64,000 bases of DNA from an uncultured delta proteobacterium (GTDB taxonomy: Bacteria; Desulfobacterota; Desulfobacteria; Desulfobacterales; JAHEIW01). The position numbers and the translations under genes were made by a program. Shown piece after piece: positions 7,885-58,482 of this stretch. The stretch covers positions 224,001 to 288,000 of the forward strand of contig CAVPNL010000003.1 of NCBI GenBank assembly GCA_963706575.1, given 5' to 3'. Each line of letters begins with the position of its first letter. Within the stretch, counting starts at the first letter, position 1. The notes below the pieces were generated by a model that was given only the letters and a program-made list of their open reading frames with translations, searched no databases and had not been told where the DNA came from.

Positions 7885-7911
7885 TTATCGGGTAAATATC
7901 GAGAAACTTTA
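7885..7911 (-). promoter_or_regulatory. sigma28 promoter in front of flgN-cheD-HDOD-HDOD-flgKL
   Basis: TAAAGTTT-N11-CCCGATAA on the minus strand. Confidence 0.85.
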
Positions 7912-13381: not shown

Positions 13382-13909
13382 TCATTCTTGAGGATTGTCT
13401 TTAACTTTGGCCGATTCGATGCTCAGACGCTTGAGCTTTAAAACCAGATCGACCTCACCCCGGGGAAGGTTTAATTCTTCAGCAATATCAGTCATACTCA
13501 AACCCTGATCGGACAGGCTTTCAATTTCACTGTAGATCGCATCGGCAGCGTCCGGTTCCGGCGCCTCGGTGCCGGAAATCGGTTCAAGCCGCTTAGCTGG
13601 TATGGACTTTAACAAACCGGGAGCAAGCTGGCCTTCTCGCAGCTCAAAATAAGCATCCAGTGTTTGACGTTCTTTATCAATGGTTTCCAGGATATGATTA
13701 AACGCCAGTTCGGTTTGCTGCCGAACGGCTTCAACGACAAATTCGGAATTAAACTTTTGTGATTCTTGACCGGAAGGCGCATTTGAATTCAGCCGCTTTA
13801 ATTTCATGTGGTTTCGAATCAGAAACAACAAAATCAAAGCGCACAGCCCGATTTGAGTTGCATCAATCGTAATTTCCAAAAAATTAAGTGTGTGCAATGC
13901 CATTTCCAC
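13382..13909 (-). CDS. membrane-anchored flagellar-cluster protein, DUF2802/SwrB-like
   Basis: N-terminal TM helix; C-terminal helix-turn-helix-like GLSMTDIAEELNLPRGEVDLVLKL; downstream of fliA. Confidence 0.65.
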   Translation of the reverse strand: MEMALHTLNFLEITIDATQIGLCALILLFLIRNHMKLKRLNSNAPSGQESQKFNSEFVVEAVRQQTELAFNHILETIDKERQTLDAYFELREGQLAPGLLKSIPAKRLEPISGTEAPEPDAADAIYSEIESLSDQGLSMTDIAEELNLPRGEVDLVLKLKRLSIESAKVKDNPQE

Positions 13910-13957
13910 TCCCTGAATATTTTGTTTTCGGTCTTGAACCAGTTTCTATTTGGTGAT

Positions 13958-14103
13958 TAGAAGTGGTTTCAAAATCACAGATCAGGTTCAAGGGCAAGGC
14001 GTGGCGTGCATTGGAAGCGGAGCGTACACGTAGTACTCGAGCATTTCGATGCACGGGACAACGCAGCCATTGGGCCTTAGATGGGGTTTTGAATCCACTT
14101 CTA
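13958..14103. mobile_element. MITE-like element, copy 1 (146 bp)
   Basis: Terminal inverted repeats TAGAAGTGGTTTCAAAA...TTTTGAATCCACTTCTA; homologous to 45571-45717 in inverted orientation. Confidence 0.8.
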
Positions 14104-14394
14104 GACATGGACATCGATGACTTTCTGTTCAGAATTGTCTTGTGTTTCTTCGGCATCGGTTGAGGTTGAAGACTCAGTAAATTTTTGGGCGTGGCGCTTA
14201 TTGGTTTTACCCCGAATATCGACCTTGTCCAGTTTCTTTTTTTTCTTCTTCCTTTTGTCTTCTTGATCTTCCTCATCAAAAAATTTTTCAAAAGGCGGCC
14301 TTTCCTCTTCGCGCTTTTTGCGATTGACCCTTTGGACTCGGCCCGAAGCCGACACCGGCGGCATTCCTTTCGGAAAATTAATGTCGTCAACCAT
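14101..14394 (-). CDS. small highly charged hypothetical protein
   Basis: 97 aa, Lys/Glu/Asp rich, AGAGGA RBS, ends KVIDVHV. Confidence 0.65.
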   Translation of the reverse strand: MVDDINFPKGMPPVSASGRVQRVNRKKREEERPPFEKFFDEEDQEDKRKKKKKKLDKVDIRGKTNKRHAQKFTESSTSTDAEETQDNSEQKVIDVHV

Positions 14395-14556: not shown

Positions 14557-15312
14557 CTAACCTTCCAGCAATTTTTGTTTCCGCAATTTAGTCCGCAAAT
14601 GCAATATGGCCTGGGAATGAATCTGCGACACCCGTGATTCGGTAATTCCGAGTACTTTACCCGTTTCTTTCATCGTCAACTCATCCAGATAGTACAGCGA
14701 AATCACAAGGCGTTCCTTTTCAGGCAGTTGTTTGATTGCCCGGGCCATGGCTTCCTTTAATTCCTTTAATTTTGTCATGTTGAGGGCATCGTCTTCATTA
14801 TTAACCAGATAACTCAGTAGCTTTTCTTTTTCATCTCTGGAGGATACCCCCAACTCTTCGAGACTGATGAAAGAGATGCTCGACATTTGCTTGGTGCGAT
14901 AAACCTGCTCCAGATCAACTCCCAATTCCCGGGCGATCTCCTGGTCGTCCGCCTCACGACCCAACTTCTGTTCCAGTCGCAGGTAAGCAGATTCCAATTC
15001 CCTTATTTTCCGTCGATTGGACCTTGAGAGGAAATCCCGGGCCCGCAACTCGCTGAGCACCGCCCCTTTGATCCGAAAGATCGCATAGGTCATAAATTTA
15101 TTGTCCCGCCTGGGATCGTAACGATCCACAGCCTGAATCAGCCCGATAACCCCAACATTCATCAGATCATCGATATCCACGGTTGACGGAAGATGAACCG
15201 CCAGTCTTTGAACGATGCGTTTTACATAAGGCAAATATTCGGTAATTAACTGGTCGCGGTACGCTGGGTCTTTGGGAATGAGTTTTTTTGTTCGTGTCTG
15301 TGCCAGTGCCAT
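14557..15312 (-). CDS. fliA: flagellar sigma factor sigma28
   Basis: DDLMNVGVIGLIQAVDRYD; RIKGAVLSELR; ITESRVSQIHSQA. Confidence 0.96.
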   Translation of the reverse strand: MALAQTRTKKLIPKDPAYRDQLITEYLPYVKRIVQRLAVHLPSTVDIDDLMNVGVIGLIQAVDRYDPRRDNKFMTYAIFRIKGAVLSELRARDFLSRSNRRKIRELESAYLRLEQKLGREADDQEIARELGVDLEQVYRTKQMSSISFISLEELGVSSRDEKEKLLSYLVNNEDDALNMTKLKELKEAMARAIKQLPEKERLVISLYYLDELTMKETGKVLGITESRVSQIHSQAILHLRTKLRKQKLLEG

Positions 15313-16270: not shown

Positions 16271-17701
16271 TTAGTTTGTAATCCGCAATTTATCGCTCGC
16301 GGATAATCCAGTTTGAAAGTGGCGGCTGCGGGACGGCCGACAATCTTGACAGGGCATAAAATGCTCCCCTTCAGCTGCCTGTACACTTGAAAAGGTGATC
16401 ATGTTTTTCGATTTTATTTTTTGGGTCCATTTGCATTCGGGATGATGAAACACATCTGAATTTTTGTTGGCGACAAAAGTGCGCGCCGCTATACGGTCCG
16501 GCGCCTCTTGGGGGGATTGATCGGGTCTCCCCGAAGCTAAAACTGTTTTACGATTCTTGAAGGTGCCCAGCAGGCGCTCGACAATTTTATCCATGGATCC
16601 GGTTTCGATGGCATTCGGGACCTCACGGCCATTTGTCACAAAAGACAGGGGCAATGGATGGCGGATCAGCACATTGATTAAATTTCCATAGGTGCAGCTT
16701 TCATCAAGCTTGGTGAAAATTAAATGCTGAACATCAATGATATTCAGGCATCTGAGCGTATTGATCAGATCGCTTTCTTTGGATGTCGCCGATAAAGCCA
16801 GGTGAATTTCAATGGCGTCAATGCGATCTAAACATGCCTTGATATCATCGATTTGATCCTGATTTTTAGGATTGAATCCGGATGTATCCACTAGCACGAT
16901 GTCAAACTTCCGCAACGCATTAACAGCCGCCTGAAAAGCAGCCGGCGTGGCCGCAGCTTTAACGGGAACCCCGATTGCTTGGGCATATACCTTCAGATCC
17001 CCGATGCCCCCGACGCGGTCGGAATCCAGTGAAATGAGCGCAACCTTTTTGTGGTGTTCAATGACATACCGGGCAGCCAGCTTTGCAACCGTAGTTGTTT
17101 TTCCGACGCCGGTGGGCCCCACAACCGCTAACATCTTACAACCGGACGCTGTGCGAAGCGGCGCTCCGGCTTCGTTTCTCTTTTGTTTCAGTATATTCGA
17201 AATGCTTGAAATGACCTGGCCGGTGGTATCAAAGCGGGCGTCCGAATGAACGGCTTTTAAGGCGTCAATGATATCATTGGCAATATCCCGTTTAACTTCC
17301 TGAGACAGCAACTGTTGAAAAATATCCGCAATAAAATCATCGTTGCCAGATCCGGTCGTGTTTGCAGGCTGATGGGGCCACTTGCGACCATAGAGGGTTT
17401 TAATTCGACTGCCGACCGATTGCCGAGAATTTCGCTTTGGAGGGGGGCGAAGACTGCGGGTAGCATTGTGGCGGTAACTATTCAAAGCACTGGTGGTTAA
17501 TGCCGGCTTTATTTCAGCCGGGAGATGATAACCATCAACCGCAGCGGTAACCTCAACGCCCACAGATTTTACCCGGCCGATAATTTTATTCTCTTTTTTG
17601 AGGCTGCGTGCCGATAGAATTACGGCGTCTGAACCCAGCTCTGTTTTGATCAACCGCAGGGCAGTCCTCATATCTTTGGCTTCAAAGCGTTTAATCTGCA
17701 T
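16271..17701 (-). CDS. flhF: SRP-type GTPase FlhF with C-terminal Ada-type Zn-binding domain
   Basis: MQIKRFEA; GPTGVGKTTT; DTSG; TKLDE; C-terminal VFHHPEC...PCQDCRP. Confidence 0.93.
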   Translation of the reverse strand: MQIKRFEAKDMRTALRLIKTELGSDAVILSARSLKKENKIIGRVKSVGVEVTAAVDGYHLPAEIKPALTTSALNSYRHNATRSLRPPPKRNSRQSVGSRIKTLYGRKWPHQPANTTGSGNDDFIADIFQQLLSQEVKRDIANDIIDALKAVHSDARFDTTGQVISSISNILKQKRNEAGAPLRTASGCKMLAVVGPTGVGKTTTVAKLAARYVIEHHKKVALISLDSDRVGGIGDLKVYAQAIGVPVKAAATPAAFQAAVNALRKFDIVLVDTSGFNPKNQDQIDDIKACLDRIDAIEIHLALSATSKESDLINTLRCLNIIDVQHLIFTKLDESCTYGNLINVLIRHPLPLSFVTNGREVPNAIETGSMDKIVERLLGTFKNRKTVLASGRPDQSPQEAPDRIAARTFVANKNSDVFHHPECKWTQKIKSKNMITFSSVQAAEGEHFMPCQDCRPSRSRHFQTGLSASDKLRITN

Positions 17702-26727: not shown

Positions 26728-27508
26728 TCAGGCCTTGGCCGGTTGGGCATCGGCCGTCATGCGGGCCTTGGGCGCAATAAAGGCTTTTAGCTTTTGCTCC
26801 ACCACCCGATGATTATCGCCGGATTGAATCGAAATAACCCCTTCCAGAATCATCTGTTTGACCAGGACCTCCTGTTTGCTGCGTGTTTTTAGCTTACCGG
26901 CGACCGGCAGGAACAGCAGGTTGGCCAGCAGGGTACCATAAAAGGTCGTCAGTAAGGCCACCGCCATGGGCGCTCCGATCTGGCTGGGATCTTCCATCTG
27001 CATCAGCATTTGCACCAGGCCGATAATGGTTCCCAGCATCCCGATCGCCGGTGCAAAACCGCCCATGGTGGCAAATATCTCGGACCCCAGTCGGTGCCGC
27101 ATTTCCAGGTATTCAATTTCAATCGACATGACTTCTTCGATCGAAGAGGATTCCATACCGTCGATGGCCATCTGAATGCCCCGGGCCAGGAAACGGGTCT
27201 TTGATGTCCTTGAGCTGGGACTCAAATGAAAGGATGCCTTCCTGCCGGGCCTTTTTGGCAAAACCCGACATCAACGGAATCAATTCGCTCGGAATCTGGG
27301 AACGGTGCATAAACACGTTTTTGGCAACCTTGAACACGCCGAGCACTTCTGAAAGTGGATAGGCCAAAAGGGTTGCTCCCATGGTTCCACCCAGGACGAT
27401 CATGACGGATGGATAATTGATAAACCAGGTCCCATCACCACCCATCAAGATGGAAATGAAGACCAGACCAAATGAAACCAAAATACCGATTAAGGTAGTG
27501 ATATCCAC
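26728..27508 (-). CDS. motA: stator A subunit (PomA/MotP-like), +1 frameshift near 27192
   Basis: MDITTLIG; ARQEGILSFE; APAIGMLGTIIGL; MAVALLTTFYG. Confidence 0.92.
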
Positions 27509-28395: not shown

Positions 28396-29656
28396 TTAGC
28401 GTTTCAGGTTAATCAGTTCATTGAGAATCTCATCACTGGTGGTAATTACCCGTGAATTGGCCTGAAATGCCCGCTGGGTGGTAATCATTTTAATAAACTC
28501 CGCGGCCAGATCCACGTTGGACATTTCTATCGCGCTGGTGCTGACACTGCCCAGGCGACCGCTTTGCGGTGTACCGAAAAGCGCCGGGCCGGATTCCAGA
28601 GACTCGGAATACAGATTCTTGCCCATTTTGGTCAACCCGTAATAGCTGGGGAAATCGGCCATCACCAGCTGAAAAAGGGGCGTCAGCTGGCCGTTGGAAT
28701 AAGAGCCGGTCACGACCCCCTCTTCATTGACGTCCACCGTCCGCAGGGTGCCGGAAGGATAACCGTTCTGGGTCTGAAAGGTCGTGCCGGAGGGGGATGA
28801 ATACTGGGTGAGGCTGCCGTTACTGGCCCCAGCGGCATCAATCACATCCCAGTTAATGCTCATGGGTGCGGCGCCGTTGATCAACGAAGCTATATCGATA
28901 ACGGGATCAGCGGCAGGGGGGCCGGTTAAATTTCCAAAGGCATCAAACACAAAGGTGGCGCCGCCGCCCCCTATGCTGACGTCTCCCGGCAGAGCCACAG
29001 TGGGTGGAACACTAGGCAGCAACGGTCCAGGTGTTTACAGCGGGAGCAGCACTTTTGGTAAAGGTCAGGGTCAGGGGGATGGTATTGCCCAGCGAATCGT
29101 AAACCGTTGTGGTCGTGGCATAGGTGCCCAGATCGGCTGTAGCCGAATCCAGATTGACATCAACGGAAAGTGAATCGGTAGCAACCGGCGGAGAGGCACC
29201 CTGTGCGGAAGCATTGATATTGGTAACGGCGCCCAGAATCAGCGACCCGTCGGGGTTGGTACCGGTGACTTCATAACCCTGTACGTACAGACCGGACATA
29301 TTCACCAGATCCCCGTTGCGGTCGAAGGTAAATTCACCGGCGCGGGTGTAATAGTTTGCGCCGGTATCATCCTGAACGACGAAAAAACCACTGCCGTTGA
29401 TGGCCATGTCCGTGGGGTTGTTGGTATTTTCAATGGTCCCCTGGGTCCACATCGGTGTGGTCCCCTGGAACTGGACCCCGCGGCCGACATCACTGGATAC
29501 GCTGCCGGCCAGCGAACTGCTCAAAATATTGGCAAACGAAGACCGGTTTGATTTAAAGCCCGTGGTGTTGACGTTGGAAATGTTATCGCCCAGCACTGTC
29601 ATTGAAGTTGAATTGACATTTAAGCCGACCATGCCGGCAAACAATGAACCAATCAT
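28396..29656 (-). CDS. flgE: hook protein, +1 frameshift near 29013
   Basis: GDNISNVNTTGFKS; YYTRAGEF; EMSNVDLAAEFIKMITTQRAFQANSR. The two ORFs join at WTVAA/SVPP. Confidence 0.93.
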
Positions 29657-34336: not shown

Positions 34337-35111
34337 CTATTCACTTTCCTGCTGTGGCGGTTCAAACTGGGTTTGGAATGATTCTTCAATCGCCTGAAAT
34401 TGCTTTTCAATGCGGGCGTCAATGTCGCCCCTGTCCGTTTCCACCAGACAGCCCCCGCTTTGAATGGACTCCTCGGCCTCAAAACGAATATTATCGACAT
34501 TGCGTAAAAAGCGGGAAAACTGGAATTGGGTGTCTTTAATAAATTGGAGATCGTCAGGGTTTAGTTTGATTTTAATCTTTGCGGGATTATTCAACTCGGC
34601 TCAGGGCCTCCCGGGCGACGCAAGTGACGGTTTCCTGAGTGGTTTTGACCTCGTGACACACAATTTTTCTGGCAATCGACAATGCCAGCTGAGCCACTTC
34701 TTTTTCAATCTCCTGATAGATTTCCTGCCGAATATTTTCCAGGTGTCCCAGGATCTGGTTAAGACTGTCGACGACCGAATCCGCCTTTTTCGACCCGGAC
34801 TCAAAACCGACCCTTTTACCTTCAAGAAAACCCTTTTGAAACGCAGCTTCTTTGATCTCATCGACCGAAGGCGCATTGTCTTCTTTGTCTTCTTTATCTT
34901 GCGCGGGAGTTTTCGGTACTTCAGCAGCCAAACCATCTTCCGTGCAGACCGGATCCATATCCATATTTTTAAAAAGCGACCGCTGAAAATCAGCGTTGCT
35001 TGTTCGGCTGACGCAAGGATTCGCTGGCTCATCCACCGGAATATTCGGGAAATAATGCAGACGAAAGTCATCCTGCAGCACTTGAGATCCTTTTTTGGCT
35101 TCATCAGGCAA
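34337..35111 (-). CDS. fliH: FliH, +1 frameshift near 34590
   Basis: AFQKGFLEGKRVG repeats; LALSIARKIV; second part LNPDD...GGCLVETDRGDIDARIE. Confidence 0.88.
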
Positions 35112-44262: not shown

Positions 44263-45120
44263 TTACGGCGTATAGGTGATAAAAAGGCTGATTTCATCAA
44301 ATTCCCGGCTTATCTCCGCCAGTATCGACTCCATCGCCTCGGGTTTAACCCGCAAACTGTCCCAGGCTGCTTTATCCAGTGCGGGCATTTTATTATCGCC
44401 GCCGTAGCCGAAATTTAGCGATCGACAGAGGATATCAGCCAGGTGAACAATCGCGGCTTCAAGCGCGAATCGCCCCGCTTCGCTGGGTTGGTGATGATGC
44501 AAGATGACACTGACCAGCTTCGGGGGCAGATTCCATTTTTCAGCCAGCAATTTACCCACCAGCGGGTGACTGTATCCCAGAATTTTTTCCTCGGCTGCTA
44601 TCATCAAAATATTTTGGTCTTTGACCAGATGATTAATTTCCTTAAATGCCTGCTGCAGAAAAATCATTTCCACTATTTTGCCGATATCATGTAAAAGACC
44701 GGATACAAACAGCTCTTCAACCTTGTCATAACGCAGGTAATTACCGATGACTTTGGCTCCCACGGCACAACCCAGGGAATGGTCCCAGAATTGTTCCTGT
44801 CTGATCAGGCTGGTTTTCCTGCGATTTGAAAACAGGTCAAACACCGAAGTGGTTAAAAGCAGGTTGCGGATGGCGTCAAAGCCCAGCAGCACGATAGCAC
44901 CGGTGATGGTTGAGATTCGCTGGGGAAACCCATAAAAAGATGAATTGACCAGCTTCAGAAGTCTGGCAGCCAGTACCTGGTCATCGGTGATCACCCGGGC
45001 CAGATCACGGGCGGAGGACTTGGGGTCGTTTACGAGCTCCGTAATCCTTAATACCGTTCTTGGAAGCGTCGGCAGATCATCTACCCGGGATATGATTCGG
45101 TCTAAATCAGATGGGTTCAT
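44263..45120 (-). CDS. HDOD domain protein
   Basis: LPTLP; DQVLAARLLKLVNSSFYG; FWDHS; LLHDIGK; HHH. Confidence 0.92.
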   Translation of the reverse strand: MNPSDLDRIISRVDDLPTLPRTVLRITELVNDPKSSARDLARVITDDQVLAARLLKLVNSSFYGFPQRISTITGAIVLLGFDAIRNLLLTTSVFDLFSNRRKTSLIRQEQFWDHSLGCAVGAKVIGNYLRYDKVEELFVSGLLHDIGKIVEMIFLQQAFKEINHLVKDQNILMIAAEEKILGYSHPLVGKLLAEKWNLPPKLVSVILHHHQPSEAGRFALEAAIVHLADILCRSLNFGYGGDNKMPALDKAAWDSLRVKPEAMESILAEISREFDEISLFITYTP

Positions 45121-45457: not shown

Positions 45458-45570
45458 AAAATCTTCAGTCCAGCTTAATATGCAAATCTTAATAAAGGTA
45501 GTTGCATACACCACCACACCGCCAATTACAATGTTCTCGAAAACCGAATGCGACTGTACGGTGTTTTTAT

Positions 45571-45717
45571 TAGAAGTGGTTTCAAAACCCCATCTAAGGC
45601 CCAAGGCCTGCGTTGCAAGCCTCCGATAAATGCTCACATACCCATGTATGCTGCGCTTTCTCGATGGGCTTGACGCCTTGTCCTTGAACCTGATCTGGAA
45701 TTTTGAAACCACTTCTA
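45571..45717. mobile_element. MITE-like element, copy 2 (147 bp, inverted relative to copy 1)
   Basis: Perfect 17-bp TIRs TAGAAGTGGTTTCAAAA/TTTTGAAACCACTTCTA. Confidence 0.8.
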
Positions 45718-45814: not shown

Positions 45815-45841
45815 TAAAGAAAAAAGCACAACCGCCGATAA
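45815..45841 (+). promoter_or_regulatory. sigma28 promoter P1 of flagellin
   Basis: TAAA-N15-GCCGATAA, a perfect match. Confidence 0.88.
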
Positions 45842-45926
45842 CAGCGTACAATCACGAAAAACCACCTGGAATTAACGATCATAAATCAAGGGCGCCCCGG
45901 TTGGAGCGCCGCAATGCAGAAAACAC

Positions 45927-45953
45927 TAAAGTATTTTGGAATAATTCCGATAA
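45927..45953 (+). promoter_or_regulatory. sigma28 promoter P2 of flagellin
   Basis: TAAAGTAT-N11-TCCGATAA. Confidence 0.82.
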
Positions 45954-46106
45954 CAACATCGTAGCCGAAAAAAATATGGTCTGAAAGGAGGCGGGGTGAG
46001 TACTTCGAGACCAGATACGGCAACCACGAACGAAGAATTTAGCGGTATTTTAATAACCCGATTGGCAGAAACGCCAAAATAAACACCTAGGAAAGGAAAC
46101 CTTATC

Positions 46107-46959
46107 ATGGCACTAAGTACAATAAGCTTAACTCCCGGCATGCGGGCCAATCTATTCAGCCTGCAGCAAACGTCCAAGGATTTTGAGATTGTCCAGAAAC
46201 GTTTATCCACCGGCCTGAGAATCAACAGCGCCCTGGATGATCCCATCAACTTTTTCACCGCTCAGGAACACCGGTTGCGGGCAAGTGACCTGGCGGCACG
46301 CAAAGACGGCATGTCTGAAGCCATTCAGACAATCAAAGCCGGCAACGTCGGTGTTGAAAACATCAACAGCCTGATTGCCCAGGCCAAATCGCTGGCTCAA
46401 TCGGCCCTGTCCGCCACATCAACGGATGCCATAACTTTTCGCAGTCAGTATAATACGGTTCTGAACCAGATCAGCCAGATGGCGGCGGATTCCGGTTACA
46501 AGGGCATCAACCTGCTTCAAAGTGCCGAACTAACAATCGAGTTCGCATCAGAAGCTGGCAAATCGACTTTGAAGCTGACCGGTTTCGGAGACACATCTAC
46601 AACTTTCAATATTAATGGTTTGGATACTGAAATGAGCGCTATGGGTTCTGCTTGGATTTCCGGTACGACAATTGATGCGACCGAATATTCAAAATTCCAT
46701 CGACAATCTTGAAACAGCGCGGGGCGAGCTCAGAGTTAGAAGTAAAACGCTGTCCAGCAGTCTGTCAATCATTACGGCGCGCGAAGAGTTCACTGCGCAG
46801 ATGATTAATACGCTGGGCGACGGTGCCTCCAAGCTGACGGAAGCCGATATGAATGAGGAAGGCGCCAACATGCTGATGCTGCAAACGCGTCAGGCACTGG
46901 GTACAACCTCATTAAGTCTGGCCTCTCAGGCAGCTCAAGGGGTTTTGAGACTGTTCTAA
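46107..46959 (+). CDS. fliC: flagellin, Alphaproteobacteria-like type (~283 aa), +1 frameshift near 46683
   Basis: RLSTGLRINSALDDPINFFTA; DSGYKGINLL; C-terminal ADMNEEGANMLMLQTRQALG...VLRLF. Confidence 0.92.
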
Positions 46960-46970
46960 GCGAAATGGAT

Positions 46971-46998
46971 TCAGGAGGGGGAGCAATCCCCCTCCTGA
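46971..46998 (+). promoter_or_regulatory. GNRA-capped hairpin after flagellin (no U-tract)
   Basis: TCAGGAGGGGGA-GCAA-TCCCCCTCCTGA, 12-bp stem. Confidence 0.7.
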
Positions 46999-47119
46999 TC
47001 TGACTGACCTGATATCCGAATCTTTATATTCTACAAATGATTCAGCCTGATTTGATACCAGCACAAAGATTCGCTCATGATTGATCAACCAGCGGTTTGA
47101 AAGCGGTGCTGATTAGCGG

Positions 47120-47554
47120 GTGGCAAAAAAAATGGCCCTAAAAATCACATTAAAACCAAATGAAAAAATGATCGTCAGCGGCGCCGTGGTTACCAACGGT
47201 AATACCAAAAACACCGATTTGATCATTGAAAACAATGTGCCGGTTCTACGCCAGAAAGATATTTTGAGTGAAGCGGATGCGACATCGCCCTGCAGCCGAA
47301 TCTATTTTATCATTCAACTCATGTACATCGATGAAGATAATCTAACTGATCACCAACCCATCTATTGGAAATTGGTTCGCGATTTGCTGGATGCAGCCCC
47401 CAGGTTAGCCGGACACATCAATCAGATTAACGAAAATATCCTGGGGGGCAACTTCTACCGGGCCTTAAAACTCGCCGGCGAATTAATCGATTATGAACAG
47501 GAGGTTCTTAAACATGTACGCGAATACACAGACCCAATCGCTCAAAACATATGA
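47120..47554 (+). CDS. flbT: FlbT-family flagellin translational regulator (alternative start 47132)
   Basis: MALKITLKPNEKMIVSGAVVTNG...VLRQKDIL...ATSPCSRIYFIIQLMY...FYRALK...LIDYE. Confidence 0.9.
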   Translation: MAKKMALKITLKPNEKMIVSGAVVTNGNTKNTDLIIENNVPVLRQKDILSEADATSPCSRIYFIIQLMYIDEDNLTDHQPIYWKLVRDLLDAAPRLAGHINQINENILGGNFYRALKLAGELIDYEQEVLKHVREYTDPIAQNI

Positions 47555-47900
47555 AAGCGTCGACAAAGCCACCCAGTCCGGCCGCGAAATCGAAGCGGCT
47601 GTGCTTACCAAAGCAGCCGTTAAGCTCAAAGAATGCCAGGACGGCTGGGATGCGCCGGATCGGGATAACAGATTAGAGGAAGCGCTGAAATACAACCAGC
47701 GGATCTGGAGTATCTTTCAAAGTGAACTGTCGCGCGAGGATCACGAGCTGCCCAAGAAATTACGTCTGGACATTCTGCGATTGGCGGCATTTATCGATCG
47801 GCGAATTTTCGAAACCATGGCATCACCGGCACCGGACAAACTCAATATCGTCATCGATATAAATAACAATCTGGCCTCCGGCTTGAGAGGTTCACCCTGA
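47514..47900 (+). CDS. flaF: FlaF-family flagellin regulator/chaperone
   Basis: SGREIEAAVL...EALKYNQRIWSIFQ...LPKKLR...IDINNNLASGL. GGAGG RBS before ATG 47514. Confidence 0.9.
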   Translation: MYANTQTQSLKTYESVDKATQSGREIEAAVLTKAAVKLKECQDGWDAPDRDNRLEEALKYNQRIWSIFQSELSREDHELPKKLRLDILRLAAFIDRRIFETMASPAPDKLNIVIDINNNLASGLRGSP

Positions 47901-48050: not shown

Positions 48051-50507
48051 TTAAACTTCAAACACTTCGATCTGCGTCGGCGCCCTGCCCTCCAAAAATA
48101 TCCGCCACATCTCGCTGTAACCGAGCTCCAGGTTCCTTACAAAACGAGCTGTATCGAAAAGCGGCTTTTTCAGGTGATTGATGTGGAGCTTTTGCCGAAC
48201 GGCATTTAGCTCGGATGGATGTGATGCCAGCTGAACCGCCAGTTTCTCATATTCTTCAAGACAATCAGCGACCAATTCCGGTAGTCCGACGGCACGCAAT
48301 AAACTGGATGACACCCGCGACGCAAAATGACTGCCCTCTATGGTAATCACCGGCACACCGGCCCACAATGAATCGCTGGTGGTCGTGTGGCCGTTGACAA
48401 TCCGGGTGTCCAGAGCCAGATCCGCCCATTTCAGACGTGACAGATGTTGCGCTTTTTCTATCTTCTGTGCAAACACCAGTCGATCAGGGTCGACGCCTCT
48501 ATTGGCGGCCTCCCGGCGCAGATTGCGCCTGGCATTCCGGTTCTCATCAAAAAGCCATAATACGCTGCCGGGAACCTGCTGCAATATCCGCATCCAGCTG
48601 TCAAACAAGACAGGATCAATTTTGTAAGGGAGATTGAACGAGCTGAACACAAAACCTTTATCCGGCAAACCCAGTGCTTTCCGAGTCCAATCCCGAGCTG
48701 CAATTTCCTGTTGATCGTCATTGACCTGATAACAGTGGGGCAAAAAGACCAGTTTTTCATTGTAATAAGGCGCATGGTCCTCAGGGGTAACAATCCTGTC
48801 GGTGATCATATAATCAATGAAATCGGCACCGGTGGTGCCCGGATAACCCAGGTAGTGGACTTGAATGGGAGCCGGGCGACAGGCCAAAATGCCCAGCCTG
48901 GCACCTTTGGTGTGCCCTTTGAGGTCAACTAAAATGTCGACCTCTTCCTCGTAAATGCGTTTGGCCGTATCAATATGAGAGCGTTCACGAATGTCAAAGA
49001 ATTGGTCGCTTTCTTCTATAATCTGATTTCGATAGTGACTGTTATCTTTCGGGCCATAAGAGTAACAATGAACTTCGAATTTTTCCCGGTTATGGAGGCC
49101 GAAAAGACTCCGCATCAAATGAGCAGTGGCATGATCATGAAAATCGCAGGAAAGATAGCCGATTGTAAGCTTAGGCTTTTTTTGTCGTCTGGTTTCAAAT
49201 GCAAAAGGCAGTTTTACGTTTTGTAGTGGTTGTTCAATTTTGCGGCTCCATGTTTTTGCTACGGTCAAATTCATTGCCGGGTCGGAATTTGTTGCCATGC
49301 AAATAAACGGCGGTTGGATGATGGATTGCCCATTATCCGTTGCACGCCGAATCAAAAGATCCAGTTTTTCTGAAAAGCAAGACATTAGGTGCCAGTCGCA
49401 AGTGTGCTGTACCTGATGAATGAGATAACTGTATGCTTCAGCGTAATCGGGGTTGATCGCAATGGCTTTTTGAAAGCAGTCAATTGCTTCATCGCGCCGG
49501 CCCTCTTCGGCTAATACGACGCCCATATAGTTGTATGCCTCGGCAAACTGCGGATTTAGCTGAGTGGCTTTTTGAAAACATCCGATCGCTCCAGCCGTAT
49601 GCTCGGCTTCAGCATAGGTGACTCCTAAATTTAAATACGCTGTGGCGTTTGCAGGGCGGATTTGCAAAGCCTTCTGATAGCAGTCAATTGCCTTACTGAA
49701 ATCACCCTGGTCTTTAAATGTGTTACCCAGGTTAATATGGGCTTCATCGAGCTCTGGTTTTAGTTGAATGGCCTTTTGGCAGTAGAAAATCGCATCGTCT
49801 ATGAAACCCAGCTGTTTTGACAAATTGCCCAGGTTATTGTGGGCTTCGGCCCAGTCCGGTTTGAATTGAATGCAGTGCTTCAAGCAGGTAATGGCTTCGT
49901 CAAAGCGGTCTTTCTTTTCCAAAATATTGGCCTGGTTGTAAAACGCTTCAACCAGCATGGGGTTTAAAGAGGTTGCCTGCCGGTAGCAGGAAACGGCCTC
50001 ATCGAAAAGTCGCTGTTCTTTGAGGGTATTCCCTAAATTATAGTATGCTTCAGCGCTGTTCGGTTTAAGCGCAATCGCTTTTTGATAGGCAGAAGCGGCC
50101 CGGTCAAGGTCGGCCAATTGATGATAGGCAATGCCCATATTGATATAAGTTTCAACGAGATCGGGTTTGATTTGAAGCGCTTTTTGATAGCAGGCAATGG
50201 CCTGCTCGCAGCGGTCGCTATCGCGGTAGGCATTGCCCAGGTTGTTGTGGAAAATGGGTTGATCGGGGACGATTTGAATGGCCCGGCTGATTAAATCAAT
50301 AGCCGCTAAGTTGTCTTGCATCTGATTTAAAAGCACGCCCAATAGATGCAAGGCGTTCGCATTCTCGGGCATAACATCCAGTATCTCTCTGTAATTCTTT
50401 TCGGCCAGTTCCAAATCACCTTGCTGGTGATAATGTAACCCGCGTTCCAGAATTGAGGTCAGATGTGTGGCTGAAGCTTTTTTTGAATGATCCGATCTAA
50501 AATTCAC
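48051..50507 (-). CDS. TPR + GT41 O-GlcNAc transferase-like protein
   Basis: About 10 TPRs, then IGYLSCDFHDHAT, DILVDLKGHT, PAPIQVHYLGYPGTTG, FNLPYKI, GHTTTSDSLWAGVP. Confidence 0.92.
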   Translation of the reverse strand: MNFRSDHSKKASATHLTSILERGLHYHQQGDLELAEKNYREILDVMPENANALHLLGVLLNQMQDNLAAIDLISRAIQIVPDQPIFHNNLGNAYRDSDRCEQAIACYQKALQIKPDLVETYINMGIAYHQLADLDRAASAYQKAIALKPNSAEAYYNLGNTLKEQRLFDEAVSCYRQATSLNPMLVEAFYNQANILEKKDRFDEAITCLKHCIQFKPDWAEAHNNLGNLSKQLGFIDDAIFYCQKAIQLKPELDEAHINLGNTFKDQGDFSKAIDCYQKALQIRPANATAYLNLGVTYAEAEHTAGAIGCFQKATQLNPQFAEAYNYMGVVLAEEGRRDEAIDCFQKAIAINPDYAEAYSYLIHQVQHTCDWHLMSCFSEKLDLLIRRATDNGQSIIQPPFICMATNSDPAMNLTVAKTWSRKIEQPLQNVKLPFAFETRRQKKPKLTIGYLSCDFHDHATAHLMRSLFGLHNREKFEVHCYSYGPKDNSHYRNQIIEESDQFFDIRERSHIDTAKRIYEEEVDILVDLKGHTKGARLGILACRPAPIQVHYLGYPGTTGADFIDYMITDRIVTPEDHAPYYNEKLVFLPHCYQVNDDQQEIAARDWTRKALGLPDKGFVFSSFNLPYKIDPVLFDSWMRILQQVPGSVLWLFDENRNARRNLRREAANRGVDPDRLVFAQKIEKAQHLSRLKWADLALDTRIVNGHTTTSDSLWAGVPVITIEGSHFASRVSSSLLRAVGLPELVADCLEEYEKLAVQLASHPSELNAVRQKLHINHLKKPLFDTARFVRNLELGYSEMWRIFLEGRAPTQIEVFEV

Positions 50508-50564
50508 TTTTCATGATTTTCACGGACACGAGACAATCGTGACCGAACTTTTATCTGAAAATAT

Positions 50565-53500
50565 CTATTGGGGTAAATTTTCAAATTTAATCGGCTGTCG
50601 ATCCGTTAGCCCTGTTGGCGGGATTTCCGATAATTGTTGGGCCATGTCGTTCATTTGAATGCATTCGGTGAATAAGTCCAAAATCCCTTTATTAATGATA
50701 TCGCATTCAATCGCAGCCCCGAGCACCCGCATGGCATATTCCACTTTTTTAGCCGCCAGGAGGCTCTGTGCGAGTTCAAGGCACGGAATTTCAAGGTGAG
50801 AGCCCAAAGGAGTATTTTTTAATTTTCGGATGCCATCAAGTCCCTTTTCTTTCGGACCTGCACAGCAGTATGCAGCCGATAGAATAAACTGAGCCGGCGG
50901 GTAATCTGGAAAACTGTTCAACAGGCCCTCGAGAATGCTGATGGTTTTGGGTGCATCGCCGCACTGCAACTCAGCCAGTGCTTGGTTGTATTGCGCTTCT
51001 TTCAGATCCGGGTCGTACTCCACGGCCTTTTTGCCTGCATTAAGGGCGTCTTCAAATATACCAAGCCGATTATAAATGTTTCCCATATTCACATAGGCAT
51101 TTGCAGCCAGCTTCGGATTTGGATTAAGGGCAAGCAGTCTTTGCCACAACTCAAGAGCTTGCTCGTTTTTCTCCAGAACGGTTGCTTGTATCGCCAATTC
51201 CCATAGGGCACGAATATCCTCACCCATCTCGGATAACTTTTTCAGGCCGATATCAAAATAGGTTTCCCCTTTGCGCCCCAGTTTTTCTTGATCCAGCCGG
51301 CCGTAATGGTGTACCGGAATACGGCATTTTTTGGTTTCGATACCATTTCTTTTCAAAAGCGGATCGACCATCTCATGCACCGCCCCTTCAAACCGGATCT
51401 GATCCTTGCCGTAAAACAGCCTTACTTTTTCACTGGGCAGCCACCCGAAAGTCGCTTCTTCATCAGGATATTGTCCATCATTGGGCACCCACCCTACAAT
51501 ATTGGGCACTTTGCTATAGTTTCGGGTGGTAATGGAGTATGCGATCGGCGCCCGGGGTATCTTTTTCACAAGTCTATTAAAATCCGCATGGTCCAGGTGA
51601 GAAATCACCTCATCGCCGTCCAGAATTAAAATCCACTCAGCGGATGCTTTTGATATCGAATAGTTGCGCGCTGCGGCAAAATCATCTCTCCACTCATAAT
51701 CATAGACTTGGGCCCCAAAAGTAATGGCAATATCTTTGGATCGATCCGTGGAACCGGTATCAACGACAATCATTTCATCAACAATCGGCTTTACACTGGC
51801 CAGACATCTGGCGAGATACGTTTCTTCATCTTTAATAATCATGCACAAAGAGACAGGCGCCTTCTTCGAGGATTTGTTAAGGGTCATTGCCCCCAGTTTC
51901 TCTCTGACCTTCAGCGCGGCGCCCAGGATGCCATCCGCAATACCGAATTTGATAATTGCATCTTCAATTTCAAGCATCGCCACCTCATATTTGCCCTGCC
52001 GGATGAGAGAATCGATCAGTATATATTTTATTTTCTGGTTGTTCGGGTACAGCTGCGCCGCCTGACGTGCAACGTCTTCAGTCTTTTCAAAATCACCGAG
52101 CCCTTCGATAAAAGCATGATAATTGGTTGCAATATCTAAATCCGTCGGTGACAGGATGAAACCTTTTTCAAAAAACTTTAGGGCCTCTTCAGGTTGCTTT
52201 GTCTCCAGCTGTAACATGCCTAAATTTGTGTAAGGCTCTCCATACCCCCGATCAGACGTGATTGCTCGTTTGAAGTATTTTTCAGCAGAATCGTGGTCAT
52301 TGTTGCGGTAGGCCAGAATGCCTTTGAGGTTCAAGCCCCGCGCATGGGCGGGATCCATTGCAAGCACCTGTTCAACGCTGGCCCTTGCCGCCTCATAATT
52401 TTCCAGACCTTCTTCCGTATATCCTGAAAGTAAAACTTTTTTTATTTCCGGGTTGCCGTTTTCCGAGGGCATCTCATTTAAAACATCCTTTGCATCCTGA
52501 AATCTTTTTGCAGCCACTAAGATCTCTGCAAGCTCAAGGTAAAGACGCTTTTCTTCAGGTTGAACCCTTATTGCATTCAACAATATCTCTACCGCCTGAT
52601 CAATTTGGCCTTTCTGACTTAATTCATTTGCGTTCGATATATATTGTACGGTCTGTAATGCTTTGGCTTCCGGGTTTTGAGTGCCATTCCATGTTTCATT
52701 ATATTTCTTTCGGTCTTCGCCGGCCGATTTTTCCGTTGAAGCGTTCTTTTTGACTTTGTGCCGATCGTAATGAAAAACATATGTATCAGCGGCAATCAAA
52801 TTCTGATAGCCCCCTGCGACCGACCGGTTGCAAAAGTCTTCGACAATCATTTCTTCTGAAGCAAACTGTTCATCAAAATATCCGATTGTATCGGGTAAAT
52901 CTCGCCGGAAAGCCAGACAAAAACCGGCGAGTTTTCGGGTTGCCACCCGTCTATATTGGTTTTGTTCACGAAACGCTTCTGCAGTGGATTCGAACTCAAG
53001 CCGATCGGAATCGTCAGGATGCATCAGTTGCTGAATGCCTGCTGCCCGATTGGACATGGGGCCCACGACACCGATATTCGGCTCAAGTTTGAAACACATT
53101 TTAAACGCTTTAAGCCAACCTTCCGGTACCGCCACATCATTGTGCATCAAAACAATAATCTCGCCGGCGGCTTTCTGGATCGCCTGATTGAGAGATTCAG
53201 CCCGGCCCTCCGGTCCGGCACACTCAATAATGTGGTAACGGTCGTTATCATTTATAAGTTGTTGCGCCCATTTGAGCATGCCTTTCGTTGACCCGCGATC
53301 GATAAGCAACAACTCGTAAGGATCTGCCGTGTGCGCCTGAATGCTTTTTACGCATTCTTTTACGCGATTTTGGATCCCGTCGAGGCTGATTACAATTGAT
53401 GCGGTTGTTTTGCGGTCAATATCCTGGTTTTCAGATTCTCCTGAATTGATATCCGTTGATTCAATTTTCGCACTTGAAACGCTCACATCGATTAAAGAAT

Positions 53501-56500
53501 CTACGCTCGCTGATGGCGGCTCAATTTGCCGGCTATTCAGGGCCTGAAGATTTTTGCCGGCATCTTCATTGTCCGGCGCCAACGATAGAACCCGTTCATA
53601 AAAACCTTTAGCATCGTCAAACTTTTTGAGCGCCACGCATATGTGACCGGTAATCAGCAGCGTCTCTACATCATCGGGGTGTGTTGCCAGGATGTTCACA
53701 TAAATTTGAAGGGCCTCTTCTACCTTTCCCTGTTCTACGAACAAAAAGTCCGCCTGGTTTTTTTGAAAGTTAATATTATCGGGCATTAATTCAACGGCAC
53801 GTCCATAATGATGCCGGGCTTTTTCTTTGTCACCCGTATGATAATGAAGCACGCCCAGATCATTGTGCGCCAGAGCAAAGCCCGGATAGGTTTGCAGCAA
53901 TTCTTCTAATAGTGAGATCGCTTTGTGCGGATCTCCGTTATTTAATAACGGCTGAATCTCCCGATACAGTTCTTCGGGCGATTTAAGTTCTGGTGTAATC
54001 GGGTTCATTTTGTCCAATTTATTCAGATTGCTTTGGGCAGCTTCATTCTGCGGTTCAAGCTCCAATATGCGTTGATAAAACACTTTGGCATCCTCAAACT
54101 GATGCAATGCCAACGCAAATATGACCGGTGATCAGCAACGTTTCGACATCCTGTGGATCGAGTTCCAAAATTTTAACATAGATTTGCAGGGCCTCTTCGA
54201 CCCTGCCCATTTCAACAACGTAAAAATCGGCCAGATTCTTTTGAAACACCATGTTCTCTGGATCCAGTTGAACGGCTTTTTCATAAAATTGCTGCGCTTT
54301 TTCTTTGTTGCCGGCTTGATAGTGCAAAACGCCCAAATCGTTGTGCGCCAGCGCAAATTGAGGGTAAGATTCTGCCAGCATTTCAAGCTCATTGATCAAT
54401 TGCTCGGGTGTCTTATTTTGCATTGATTGCTGGATCGCTTGATAGATCTCCTGCGGTGTTTTCATGGCTTGAGCCGCCTGACTGTCTGATGGATCGGCAA
54501 ACCGGCGCAGCGGTCTGTCTTTTAAGGTTGTTAAACGCTGCAAAATAAGATCTGTTGACATTTCCCAATCCACTTTTGTCTTAATTTGATTCGCTGCAAT
54601 CAGGCCCCTGTGTTTTGCTTGCTCGGGACGTTCATATACCTGCTTTAATAATTGGATCAAATGAGCCTTGTCGGGCTCCAATAACCAACCGGGTGCTCTT
54701 AAAACATGTCCGTTCAGTTGAACTGATCTTTTGGTGCTGTCGATAAAAAATGCGGTTTCTTCAGAGCAGAAATCGTCACAGGCCCCGCCTTTGGTGACAA
54801 TAACCGGCAACCCGCAGGCCATGGCCTCGGCCACCGGCAGTCCAAACCCCTCCCCGCGATAAGGGTGCACCAGACAATCACAGGCCGTGTATAGGCCGGC
54901 AATTTCCTCATGTTTAAGTGTTTCGGTCAGGTATAAAATTTCCGGCGCGGCCGGATCCTTCTGGATATCTTCAATCATCTGCGCGGCATTTTGTCCCTTG
55001 TAAAAGGACTCCCCCCCCATGTCCTTGATCACAAGGCAAACATCATCTTCGCTGGTAAAGGCCTCTGCATAGGCGCTCAGCAAAATATCTATGCCTTTGC
55101 GCATGATGGTGCCGCCGACAAATAAAAATTTGAACTTTTTATTTGTAGTAACTGGGAGTTTTGCTATTTCCGGATGGAATTGGTTATAATTTACACCGTT
55201 AGGAACAACGAATACCTTATCCGATGATATTCCACTGTTTATGTAAACATCACGAACATAATTGCTCGGCACCCAGAGTTCATCGACCAGGGTTTCCATG
55301 GGCTCTACCCAATCCTTTGGCAGAGCACCGAATTCCCAGGGTTGAATGATAATCCAGTGACCCTCGGGCGGGGGGGTGAAATTGGGCGGCCACTGGTGCC
55401 GCACACAAAAATCAGCCGCACCTGATAGCGGTTTTCGCAGTCGCTCTTCGATCAGGCCGAATCGTTCGGGATCTTCTTCCGGGCCAAACTCATGCGGTTC
55501 ATAGGGAATAAGGGAAAGTTCAATGTCATGACGTCCGGCCAGTTGGACACACAGCTCTCTATTTACCAGAGCCAGACTGTGATTGACGAACTGAGAGCCC
55601 TCCCATTTAACCACTATTTTTTTATTTTTGGCCTTATCGATAAATCTTCCACTATCATCGAAATAATCGCCCCAGCGAGCGAAAAAGGTTTGCAAATTTT
55701 CTTTTACATGATCGAATCGACCCTCTGTTCTTCCTTCATAGTGATATAAGGTACTTTTGGGGTTATAAATAACCTTAAAGCCTTTTGATCTGACTTTCAG
55801 ACACAGATCAATATCTTCGACTCCGTTTTTGTATTGCTCGTCAAAACCGGCACATTCGAAAAACAAATCCCTTTTAATTAACAGGCATGCGCCGGTCACC
55901 ATGTCCAGTTCTTTAAGTTCATTGGCCTCAGGATGGTCGCCCGGTAAATTTCTAAAGGGATGATCCGGTATACCGTTTATAAAACCAATTCCTGCGTGTT
56001 GTATTGTATCGTCAGGATAAAGTAGCTTGCTTCCAACGATCCCCACATCGTCATCGGAATCTGCGGAACCGACCATTTCTTCGAGCCAGCCTTCCTGCGG
56101 CAAGGTATCATTATTCAAAAAAACAAGGTGATGCCCACGACCAAGTCTGGCTCCCTGGTTACAGGCCTTGGCAAATCCCAGATTCTCTTTGTTTGTTATC
56201 ACTTTAACCTTTTCGGGGATGCCGGATAGATATTCCCTGGTTCCATCTGTGGAATTATTATCTATAACGATAACTTCAAAAGAGGAGTTTGTTGAATTCT
56301 TATATAGGGCTTCAATACATCGCTTGGTGTAATCTAGCTGGTTAAAGACCGGGATAATTATCGAACACAACTTGGTTTGTTTGGTATTGATTTTTGAATA
56401 GCGTTTTTGATAATTCGATTGTATATGCAGGACTTCTAAATCCGGTAAAATGCCTTTTCTGCTGATGGCATCATCCGTTATCCATTGAAGGCCTGTAAAT

Positions 56501-58482
56501 TCAGTAATATGTTCTATATTGAATTTTTCACCAATACGTAACCAAAATTCTTGATCCCCATCGGCGATGTAGCGTTCGTCAAAAAATCCAATTTGCGGAT
56601 GCAGTTGTTTTCGCCACATGGGATGGGGTCCCACTAGACAAGTATTCAAGTGGTTTTGAAAGGAGTACGGTGGCCATCTATAGGCGTCAGTATGGGTATT
56701 GTTTTCAAAACTTTCATGCGGTGTTTTTGTAAGATAGGTATCACCGTATACAAGCATGCAGTCAGGATTTTCGTCTAGATATCGGGCTAAAATCTCACAC
56801 GCTTCCTGGTTGAGGATATCATTCGTACTTGCGCTTATGCAGTACCTTCCAGAAGCCTCCCTTATAGCGATATTCCAGGCCGTATATATCCCAATACGAC
56901 CCTTTGTTTTGATGTAAGTAATATTTGAGTATCGCTTCTGAAATTCTTGAACAATTGTTTCTTCATTCTGAGGAGAATGGGCGTCAACAACTACGATTTC
57001 CAAATTTTTACTGATCGTCTGGGACTCTAAGTTCTCCAAACATTCGCGAATAAATTCTTCGGAATTATAGGTAGATACAATAGCGGAAACAATATAGTCT
57101 TTTTTCTCGGCTTTGACTTTTTTGATAATTTGCTTGTCTTTTTCAGTATCTTGCAATTTTTCCCAGTTTTTCGTTATTTGATCATCTTCAGGATTTCGCA
57201 TAAGGTAATAAAGATATATTTCCCTGGCTTTATTGACCTCTCCTGATAATTCAATTTTTTCTCCAAGTTTCAAAAATACATCTCTTACATCGATGTTTTT
57301 AGGGGCAATTTCCAGTGCTTTTTGGCAAAAAATAATGGCGTCATCAATTTTTTCTAAATCCATTGAAATAAGGCCCAGAACCAAAAGAGCTTCCAAATCT
57401 TCAGGATTTTTTCTTATTATATTAAGATATTTTTCAAGTATTTGTTCACGTTTATCAGGTTTATCATAATACGCTGCAAGGTCTTTTCGAAAGTTATGGC
57501 CTTTAGTATAAAGACCTTCCCCTTCTTTGTCTGGAGCCTTGTTCTTTTCAAAATCGATTTGCTTGTTGTTGCCTAATCTTCTCTGTGAATCCAATTTTTG
57601 CTTTAGCTCTTGAAAATCGTATCCCATTTTTGAGACAATATCTGGACCTAATGTCTCTAGATACTGATCGGCAAATCCAACAAGCTCTGGAGACGAAATG
57701 TTTTTTAACCACTTGTCGATATTGTGGGTTACTGGCCGGCTATGTTGATAAATACCAACCGGGTCACCAAATCTCCCTATTGGTTTTGGTTTATCGCCAT
57801 AAGTCAGCATTTCTGGTCGAAAGGAAATTCCAAGTTTGTTGCAAATTGCTCTTACAGAATTTTCTGAATACTCAACCAATTCCTCATATTTTACAACAAT
57901 GGCATCTCTTGCCAATAGTTGCATTCCCTTGACTAAGTTGGACGGACCCTGGAGGATATCTAAATAATTTGGACTTTTTTTGAGGGTTTCTGGATTGTTT
58001 TGAAACCATGTTTTTAAGGTAGATGAAAGTACAGCCAGCGGATTTCTTAAAAGAAAAATGAATTTGGCTTCAGGAAAAACCTTTTTGAGTTCAGGAATGA
58101 TCAAATGATACCTTGGGGTTTTATCCAAGAATAATCGTTTACCCGATACCTCAAGTGCACGGTTATACAGGGTCGAGCCCATATGTCTCAAAGCCTTATA
58201 ATACAGTTCCTGACCTTCGGGCACCTGTGAAAGAAAATCTTCTAATCCTTGCCTGGCTAGATTGGAATCGAATTCTGCTAGTAAACCGTTATTTTTTAAT
58301 GCATAAATCGGATAAAGCATAATCCAAGGTTCTGCAATGGTGTGAATGTCCGAGTGCCCACTTAATATTCGCTGCAAAAGGGTGGAACCGGCTCGCGGTT
58401 GTGAAATCAGAAAAATAAGGTTTTGGCCAAACATATCCATCTCCGATGTATTTTCCTGCTTTGAAGGGTTAACGTTTTGCAT
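50565..58482 (-). CDS. giant multidomain sulfotransferase/TPR/glycosyltransferase (~2,640 aa), +1 frameshift near 54112
   Basis: Sulfotransferase (PRAGSTLLQR, DKTPRY); TPR; GT2 (IVSTYN); GT2 (IIIPVFNQ, FLNNDT); GT4 (RKGID, EGFGLPVAEAMACG); TPRs; GT2-like; TPRs; GT2 (SLCMIIKDE, LDGDE); TPRs. The junction LLITGHICV/ALHQFEDAK matches an internal duplicate LLITGHICVALKKFDDAK. Confidence 0.8.

Follow-up and report, generated by a model that had tools for sequence, protein, structure and literature searches.

We analysed a stretch of 64,000 nucleotides (nt; hereafter the window) of contig CAVPNL010000003.1 (positions 224,001 to 288,000, forward strand) from the assembly GCA_963706575.1 of an uncultured delta proteobacterium (Desulfobacterota, Desulfobacterales; genome completeness 91.8%, contamination 6.4%). 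At 45815-47900 the window holds a filament locus in which a single flagellin gene is followed by flbT and flaF and preceded by two consensus sites for sigma-28 (FliA). We consider it probable that these genes, together with a hairpin in the flagellin leader, represent a self-contained cassette, likely alphaproteobacterial, which was likely swapped repeatedly onto the native basal bodies of Desulfobacterota and Nitrospirota, and which would be transcribed by the host FliA/FlgM pair. The features of the locus are:

45815-45841, plus strand: distal sigma-28 (FliA) consensus site, 0 mismatches.
45927-45953, plus strand: proximal sigma-28 consensus site with a single mismatch, some 180 nt 5' of the flagellin start.
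46062-46077, plus strand: AGAA-loop hairpin about 40 nt 5' of the start codon (minimum free energy and centroid folds), candidate FlbT operator site 1.
46086-46097, plus strand: second conserved purine word, immediately preceding and reaching into the Shine-Dalgarno sequence; candidate site 2 of the operator.
46107-46959, plus strand: single flagellin gene of the minimal type (about 283 amino acids, aa) of the alphaproteobacterial 'SALD' clade, as assigned by profiles, relatives and tree.
46971-46998, plus strand: stem-loop (11 bp, G+C-rich) 3' of the flagellin stop, read from the sequence; likely a partial terminator or mRNA stabiliser.
47132-47554, plus strand: flbT, 140 aa (PF07378, structure prediction).
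47514-47900, plus strand: flaF, about 128 aa, overlapping the end of flbT (PF07309, NF009435; start read from the sequence).

Profile searches bore out the flagellin signatures, flbT and flaF that an earlier note on this DNA had recognised: the N- and C-terminal signatures of the flagellin were recovered by Pfam Flagellin_N and Flagellin_C (its best NCBIfam models, PRK12688 and PRK14708, both scored below cut-off), FlbT reached 135 bits with PF07378 (cut-off 27) while staying below the cut-offs of two alphaproteobacterial equivalog models, and FlaF reached 109 bits with PF07309 and 121 with NF009435 (cut-off 91). The two sigma-28 sites and the fliA gene (14557-15312, minus strand, TIGR02479 above cut-off), which the note had also listed, are likewise present. 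What it had overlooked is that the flagellin reading frame, although present, is broken in two (46107-46712 and 46672-46959) by one surplus base near 46680-46685, a point to which we return. There is no other flagellin gene genome-wide, as the Flagellin_N profile matched just this gene and flgL.

The sigma-28 matches in the window number 4, against 0.52 expected, and none of 100 shuffles reached this count (genome-wide there are 10 perfect and 130 one-mismatch matches). Among 17 distinct loci of relatives the distal site (at most 2 mismatches) was found in 9 and the proximal one, at -173 to -184, in 14. The earlier note had also listed flgM as missing, which holds for the 64 kb but not for the genome: the gene lies on contig C9 at about 150185-150490 (profile match 150212-150376, E 3e-17), preceded by its own sigma-28-type site. 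The genetic components of sigma-28 class III control are present (fliA, flgM, and consensus sites ahead of the flagellin gene, flgM and flgN-flgKL), so that the FliA/FlgM-free hierarchy of alphaproteobacteria is not the one found here, and the mixed hierarchy proposed in the note (sigma-28 motifs together with FlbT/FlaF) stands. More broadly, a sigma-28 motif (at most 2 mismatches) precedes the flagellin in 49 of 73 FlbT-type leaders (1.8 expected), in 13 of 16 canonical deltaproteobacterial ones and in none of 16 from alphaproteobacteria. Since paired sites occur in 10/73 FlbT-type leaders (mostly of this genus) and at least one motif in 49/73, the tandem promoters are a trait of the genus, and the sigma-28 wiring is a general one.

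The second component of the argument is what the genome lacks. None of fliD, fliS, fliW, csrA and flgM is found within the window, and the profiles FliD_C, FliD_N, FliS, FliW and CsrA, all of which gave matches in control genomes, had zero matches genome-wide. In tblastn searches with FliD, FliS, FliW, CsrA, FlaG and three DUF1217 proteins of relatives nothing scored below E 0.06 (a FlgM control matched); FliT was queried solely with one unannotated protein from the usual fliT position, and the DUF1217 profile matched 0/5 genomes, the control genomes being silent as well. A canonical fliC-fliD-fliS locus, which the note had advised looking for across the genome, was not found. In place of the canonical FliC/FliD/FliS/CsrA/FliW kit the genome thus has a flagellin about 20% identical to canonical FliC, and fliD, fliS, csrA and fliW were not found.

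The same division recurs across the phylum, in a sample composed mostly of incomplete metagenome-assembled genomes (MAGs) in which kin are not independent. FlbT was found in 24 of 301 genomes (10 family codes), FliD in 145 and Flagellin_N in 178 (a count that includes FlgL); the two kits overlap in 1 genome, where by our arithmetic, which ignores kinship, some 19-20 would be expected if they were independent among flagellated genomes. In this lone overlapping genome, G260, FlbT is fragmentary and lies at the end of a short contig. The other 23 FlbT genomes yielded FliD in 1, FliW in 1 and FlgM in 21, and when these were taken together with 8 relatives CsrA and FliS were found in 1/31 each, the single FliD, FliW, CsrA and FliS matches all being from G260; the cassette excludes FliD, FliS, FliW and CsrA and co-occurs with FlgM. 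A profile scan recovered 550 relatives; close ones (FlbT 84-92% identical) are titled Desulfobacterales. Among the 79 loci listed, flaF accompanies flbT in 78, a flagellin gene in 74 and FliD in none (one FliD query), and the titles comprise Desulfobacterales, Desulfosarcina, Desulfatibacillum, Desulfatitalea, Desulfofustis, Geotalea toluenoxydans, Geobacteraceae, Syntrophales, Syntrophorhabdus and Nitrospirota. In Nitrospirota FlbT is present in 10/151 genomes, and a FliD search of five FlbT genomes, namely Geotalea and four from Nitrospirota, gave 0/5. Two loci (L110 and L111) have duplicated flbT and flagellin genes.

The flagellin leader provides a third line of evidence. A strict AGAA hairpin near -40 is present in 46/73 FlbT-type leaders (1.8 expected), in 5/9 Caulobacter-type alphaproteobacterial leaders and in 0/16 canonical FliD-type ones. 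With a core-anchored pattern, 61 of 68 de-duplicated FlbT-type leaders match (loop GAA in 55/61, GGA in 4/61), and each of the two flanking positions forms a Watson-Crick pair in 46/61, as compared to 25-26 in shuffles, with switches between C-G and T-A; this covariation was counted on the core-anchored flanks, as the MAFFT leader alignment had misplaced the 3' side of the stem. The second purine word occurs in 66/68 FlbT-type leaders and in 0/16 FliD-type ones, and the two-site pattern was found once in the genome, at the flagellin. A comparable stem of the GGC/GCC type lies at about the same position in FliD-type leaders, where the loop reads GGA, the CsrA site, in 10/10 of those that match (of 16). 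Judged by these counts the hairpin is conserved and covarying, and we infer that the two leader sites are a candidate FlbT operator through which translation would be controlled.

The predicted structure of FlbT (predicted local distance difference test, pLDDT, 88.9) consists of five strands in residues 3-40 followed by a helical bundle. A homodimer formed through residues 15-24 and 28-36 scored 0.49 (best control 0.13), a level attained by 20 of 30 solved pairs and by 1 of 23 single chains, and its runs agreed in at least 92% of contacts with a pLDDT of at least 84; FlbT is therefore predicted to dimerise through its N-domain. Profile-to-profile alignment with CsrA (hhalign) spans 41 columns, starting at the N-terminus, with a probability of 7-9% (E 0.004-0.005), and 1 of 100 column shuffles scored equally high. 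Foldseek with the FlbT model gave no match at E<=0.001, the matches of a VIA structure search cover just the helical part (Z up to 8.1), CsrA was not among the listed results of these structure searches, and neither a solved relative of FlbT by sequence nor an Atlas match to residues 1-48 was found, results that speak neither for nor against a CsrA fold. The inter-chain strand pairing predicted for the FlbT dimer differs from that of CsrA. Homology of the FlbT N-domain to CsrA is presented as a lead, possible and somewhat on the unlikely side. The passages on FlbT in PMC13277936, PMC8306008 and PMC4347634 contain no claim of such homology.

The CsrA-FliW-flagellin partner switch is a mechanism known from Bacillus and Campylobacter, and the cassette may work along comparable lines. 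Upon completion of the hook, FlgM would be secreted and FliA would fire both flagellin promoters; the FlbT dimer would bind the AGAA hairpin and the Shine-Dalgarno site and repress translation (the role of CsrA); FlaF would carry flagellin to the export gate (the role of FliS); and export of a flagellin-type co-repressor would lift the repression (the role of the FliW/flagellin switch), the filament then polymerising on the host FlgL without FliD. On this scheme every replaced gene would have a functional counterpart, with the exception of the cap. In most carriers the co-repressor would be an unannotated flagellin paralog encoded between flagellin and flbT; in this genus, where the paralog is not found, the flagellin itself would have to act as co-repressor.

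The paralog, an open reading frame (ORF) of 150-290 aa with a proline-rich motif, occurs in 34 of the 79 listed loci, nearly always between flagellin and flbT (e.g. L004:650-1489 and L096:1252-2085). Its termini are degenerate (some copies keep flagellin motifs, and additional short variants exist) and it belongs to no Pfam or NCBIfam family; its model resembles flagellin D1 in fold and is disordered at both ends, the best structural matches are flagellins (top Caulobacter FljK, E 2e-4), and its Atlas neighbours bear Flagellin_N. We observed it in 17/24 FlbT genomes (13 of which seeded the profile), as compared to one weak, uninspected match in the other 277. By analogy with Caulobacter FljJ, which according to the relevant part of PMC7591256 forms no filament alone and co-represses with FlbT until it is secreted, the paralog is most likely a secreted co-repressor.

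These same properties admit another role, namely that the filament is capped by this paralog or by an unrecognised FlaY-like factor, and is therefore cap-substituted rather than cap-less. We regard this as a tentative possibility, for which the near-confinement of the paralog to FlbT genomes and its D1-like fold with disordered ends would speak, as would the use by Caulobacter of FlaY, an analogue of the cap, described in parts of PMC13277936 and 10.1101/2024.09.25.614892. Against it, in the present genome hmmsearch --max gave a best E of 0.98 and a wider profile matched the flagellin alone; the paralog was absent by profile search from this genome (G000) and from four congeners (G304, G307, G315 and G312), and since all five lack FliD as well, it is not a universal cap. 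DUF1217 was not found either (by a profile for which the controls were silent, or by tblastn with the three proteins), and in the two rows of Table S1 of PMC13277936 considered here FlaY is blank. A further cap candidate has been discarded:

C3:223246-223704, minus strand, just left of the window and behind the sigma-28 site at 25-51 (also L296:246-704): ORF of 153 aa, no Pfam family, weak FliX-like match.

This sigma-28-linked ORF was found in two FliD genomes as well as in one FlbT genome, and the same query did not find it in two FlbT genomes.

As regards ancestry, in the flagellin tree (49 rows, rooted on canonical FliC) the FlbT-type sequences lie inside the alphaproteobacterial 'SALD' clade (support 100), and the approximately unbiased (AU) test rejects a grouping of all alphaproteobacterial flagellin rows together (p=0.003); the flagellin is thereby set apart from ordinary deltaproteobacterial FliC, in agreement with the earlier note. 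Over conserved columns L031, the nearest copy from a relative that is intact, has a mean identity of 57% to flagellins of the FlbT type, 44% to those of the alphaproteobacterial 'SALD' type, 27% to those of the Caulobacter type and 20% to canonical deltaproteobacterial FliC. The comparison with FlhA that the note had called for gave an incongruent picture: in the FlhA tree (69 rows, leaving out G191 and G121 of 62 matching handles) the five alphaproteobacterial rows form a separate clade (support 100) and the FlbT genomes are scattered, the FlbT label requiring 8 changes, at least 6 of them forced by starred branches; in the FlgK and FlgL trees (26 and 25 rows) it requires 6 changes each. The FlbT tree (quick mode, unrooted) is poorly resolved. 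With flagellin nesting among the alphaproteobacterial sequences and FlhA, FlgK and FlgL tracking the host lineage, more than one swap is likely. The boundary of the exchange is illustrated by family f10, in which G144 has the order flgM-flgN-flgK-flgL-flagellin-flbT-flaF and G175 the order flgM-flgN-flgK-flgL-csrA-...-fliC-flaG-fliD-fliS; the shared slot after flgM-flgN-flgK-flgL places it after FlgL. Furthermore, FlhA of the window clusters (100) with that of four other FlbT genomes, which indicates an exchange predating this genus, and FlbT is 25-36% identical to the alphaproteobacterial copies listed versus 44-63% to those of its own phylum, which points to an old and widespread cassette. 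Of the exchange or shared ancestry with alphaproteobacteria suggested in the note, the affinity is thus retained, and a recent or one-off exchange is not. Taken together, a cassette of probable alphaproteobacterial ancestry likely displaced the fliC-fliD-fliS and csrA-fliW kit several times; the alpha-to-delta direction is favoured, on a thin alphaproteobacterial sample.

The opposite polarity, in which Desulfobacterota and Nitrospirota ancestrally possessed the cassette beside the FliD kit, its patchiness reflects differential loss, and some alphaproteobacteria received their 'SALD' flagellin from there, seems to us improbable. It would accommodate the occurrence of the cassette in 10 family codes and in another phylum, the position of all sampled alphaproteobacteria on one side of the FlbT tree (support 92), and the one Azospirillum and one Methylobacterium flagellin that fall within or beside the deltaproteobacterial group. 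On the other hand, long co-existence would require both kits together in more than 1 doubtful genome of 301, the deltaproteobacterial FlbT branches are short in relation to alphaproteobacterial diversity, and, rooted on canonical FliC, the deltaproteobacterial clade sits two levels within alphaproteobacterial flagellins.

Several points weigh against the proposal of a repeatedly swapped, FlbT-controlled cassette. The trees were computed in quick mode with one outgroup type and carry a long-branch warning, and alphaproteobacteria were sampled solely from plasmid and chromid records (16 flagellins, 13 FlbT and 5 FlhA). The strict AGAA hairpin is found in 0/7 'SALD'-type alphaproteobacterial leaders, although these belong to the nearest flagellin kin; the window leader is not more stable than its shuffles (z 0.20), its second site reads GGA, and the leader patterns were drawn up after the sequences had been viewed. 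The promoter, binding and filament steps are deduced from sequence, and the sign of FlbT control is uncertain because FlbT has been proposed as an activator in Brucella (in the part of PMC4347634 concerned). Moreover, absences are soft because most genomes are incomplete MAGs, and two of the 23 FlbT genomes (G195 and G202) lack both a FlgM and a FlhA match; there the cassette may sit without a full flagellar system. A wider formulation, which we consider doubtful as a whole, would hold that bacteria have two interchangeable plug-in filament cassettes, of which the FlbT one was swapped at least 6 times onto native hooks and grows on FlgL without any cap, that FlbT is a CsrA-derived dimer whose operator is the hairpin of CsrA with GGA re-spelled as GAA, and that an unannotated truncated flagellin is the secreted co-repressor in most carriers.

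The surplus base in the flagellin gene is most likely an assembly error, given that relatives are intact, that split genes occur genome-wide and that contigs from sequencing runs are one letter shorter. All 14 complete flagellin copies of relatives are intact (three further copies are cut by contig ends). Using orthologs from 400 kb of relative G304, split genes amount to 3/33 in the flagellar cluster and 19/173 elsewhere, in a tblastn comparison that undercounts both classes. Over the frameshift, a contig from an RNA run (with 2 other letters changed) has 357 letters for 358 reference bases, with one gap, and one from a DNA run 281 letters for 282 reference bases; the four runs compared with the window are not from the source sample and share at most 0.35 of words with it. 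Single-base errors also split motA (26728-27508), flgE (28396-29656), fliH (34464-35111) and probably the gene after fliA (13382-14390), and hit about 1 gene in 10 of the assembly, contig C2 being the worst. That the flagellar cluster of this strain is instead decaying and the flagellin a true pseudogene, as the splits in flagellin, motA, flgE and fliH might suggest, we judge quite unlikely and reject on the genome-wide frameshift rate, splits being equally common outside the cluster and within it, the relatives' complete flagellins being intact and the two run contigs being each one letter shorter. That the locus arose by misassembly (the earlier note had advised a check for chimerism) or entered the genome as a contaminant in binning is highly improbable, for in spite of the genome's contamination figure and the lack of a run contig covering the entire stretch it lies inside a 556-kb contig of even GC content, adjoins the basal-body cluster (as it adjoins the same flagellar cluster in relative G304), and is matched in 22/40 relatives (17/21 within the genus), with the gene order retained, a conserved synteny that refutes a chimera.

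In the remaining window the minus strand carries a full gene cluster for basal body, hook and junction, which includes fliA and two sigma-54 activators, and glycosyltransferase genes lie rightward of the locus. Two neighbouring groups are of note:

2761-7911, minus strand: sigma-28 site (7885-7911), then flgN, cheD, two HDOD genes, flgK and flgL; host-type junction genes.
48051-58482, minus strand: three large TPR and glycosyltransferase genes, convergent on flaF.

No csrA-fliW was found behind flgL in the junction region. Directly after flgL, where FliD-type genomes carry csrA-fliW, lies a conserved ORF with a likely signal peptide (2285-2755, minus strand), and a similar ORF is likewise found 3' of flgL in relatives G304 and G300. 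Four HDOD-domain genes belong to the flagellar cluster (944-1903, 5136-6959, 44263-45120), and two of these share the flgN-flgKL operon with cheD. FlhF (16271-17701, minus strand) is extended at its C-terminus by a region that gives a weak Ada zinc-binding match. The glycosyltransferase genes at 48051-58482 encode GT41, GT2, GT1 and sulfotransferase domains (several relatives have similar genes after flaF) and likely serve flagellin glycosylation. In every run examined, contigs pile up to very high depth over a short stretch at 45570-45717 and often end loosely there; this stretch is likely a member of a genome-wide repeat family. Contigs C16 and C17 have identical sigma-28-type sites at mirrored positions, which suggests that they overlap or duplicate each other, possibly as part of the 6.4% contamination figure.

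Literature searches, with most subscription journals outside their range, returned no description of the cassette outside alphaproteobacteria. In Table S1 of PMC13277936 the rows for BuS5 sp000472805 and Desulfatitalea tepidiphila have FliA, FlgM, FliC, FlaF and FlbT filled and FliD, FlaY, DUF1217, FliS and FliT blank; its main text, in the parts covered, notes the co-presence of FlaF and FlbT with Desulfobacterota unmentioned, and those parts do not analyse a swap, promoters, an operator or the paralog. FlbT may be mapped to more orders in its figures. Further background on FlbT and flagellins came from portions of PMC8306008, PMC11974857 and 10.1101/2024.09.25.614892, and a 2015 review lists, in its part on FlbT, the binding site and mechanism as unresolved (PMC4347634). 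FliD-free filament assembly has been described mainly from Caulobacter, and the present cassette offers a version with one flagellin and three genes on a sigma-28 background with a two-site candidate operator. As it has cultured hosts according to the records (Geotalea toluenoxydans and Desulfatitalea tepidiphila), and natural sister pairs differ in filament kit, it makes FlbT recognition, cap-free filament growth and the modularity of the flagellum at the FlgL-flagellin junction testable.

Among known systems, Caulobacter crescentus, in which the roles of FlaF, FlbT and FljJ are summarised in a passage of PMC7591256 (citing Ardissone et al. 2020 and Anderson & Gober 2000), resembles the present locus in its FlbT and FlaF families, in having neither FliD nor FliS and in TPR-glycosyltransferase genes nearby, and most carriers of the cassette have a divergent flagellin paralog comparable to FljJ. 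It differs in that here sigma-28 motifs, FliA and FlgM are present, the single structural flagellin belongs to the 'SALD' clade, the order is flagellin-flbT-flaF, a FljJ-like paralog was not found in this genus, and DUF1217 was not found. The alphaproteobacterial 'SALD' loci (Methylobacterium, Pelagibacterium, the Azospirillum polar flagellin; PRK12688/PRK14708) supply the nearest flagellins (about 44% mean identity) and share the order flagellin-flbT, but their leaders have no sigma-28 motif (0/7) and no strict AGAA hairpin, and their FlbT is distantly similar. With FliD-type Desulfobacterota (CsrA-FliW, FliC/FliD/FliS) the locus has in common the FliA/FlgM tier, the chromosomal slot and the GGC/GCC-type leader stem, whereas all five genes are replaced and the loop reads GAA (55/61) in place of GGA (10/10). 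The parts are known from one system or another; the cassette, with its mixed hierarchy of sigma-28 and FlbT/FlaF, is real, old and likely repeatedly exchanged.

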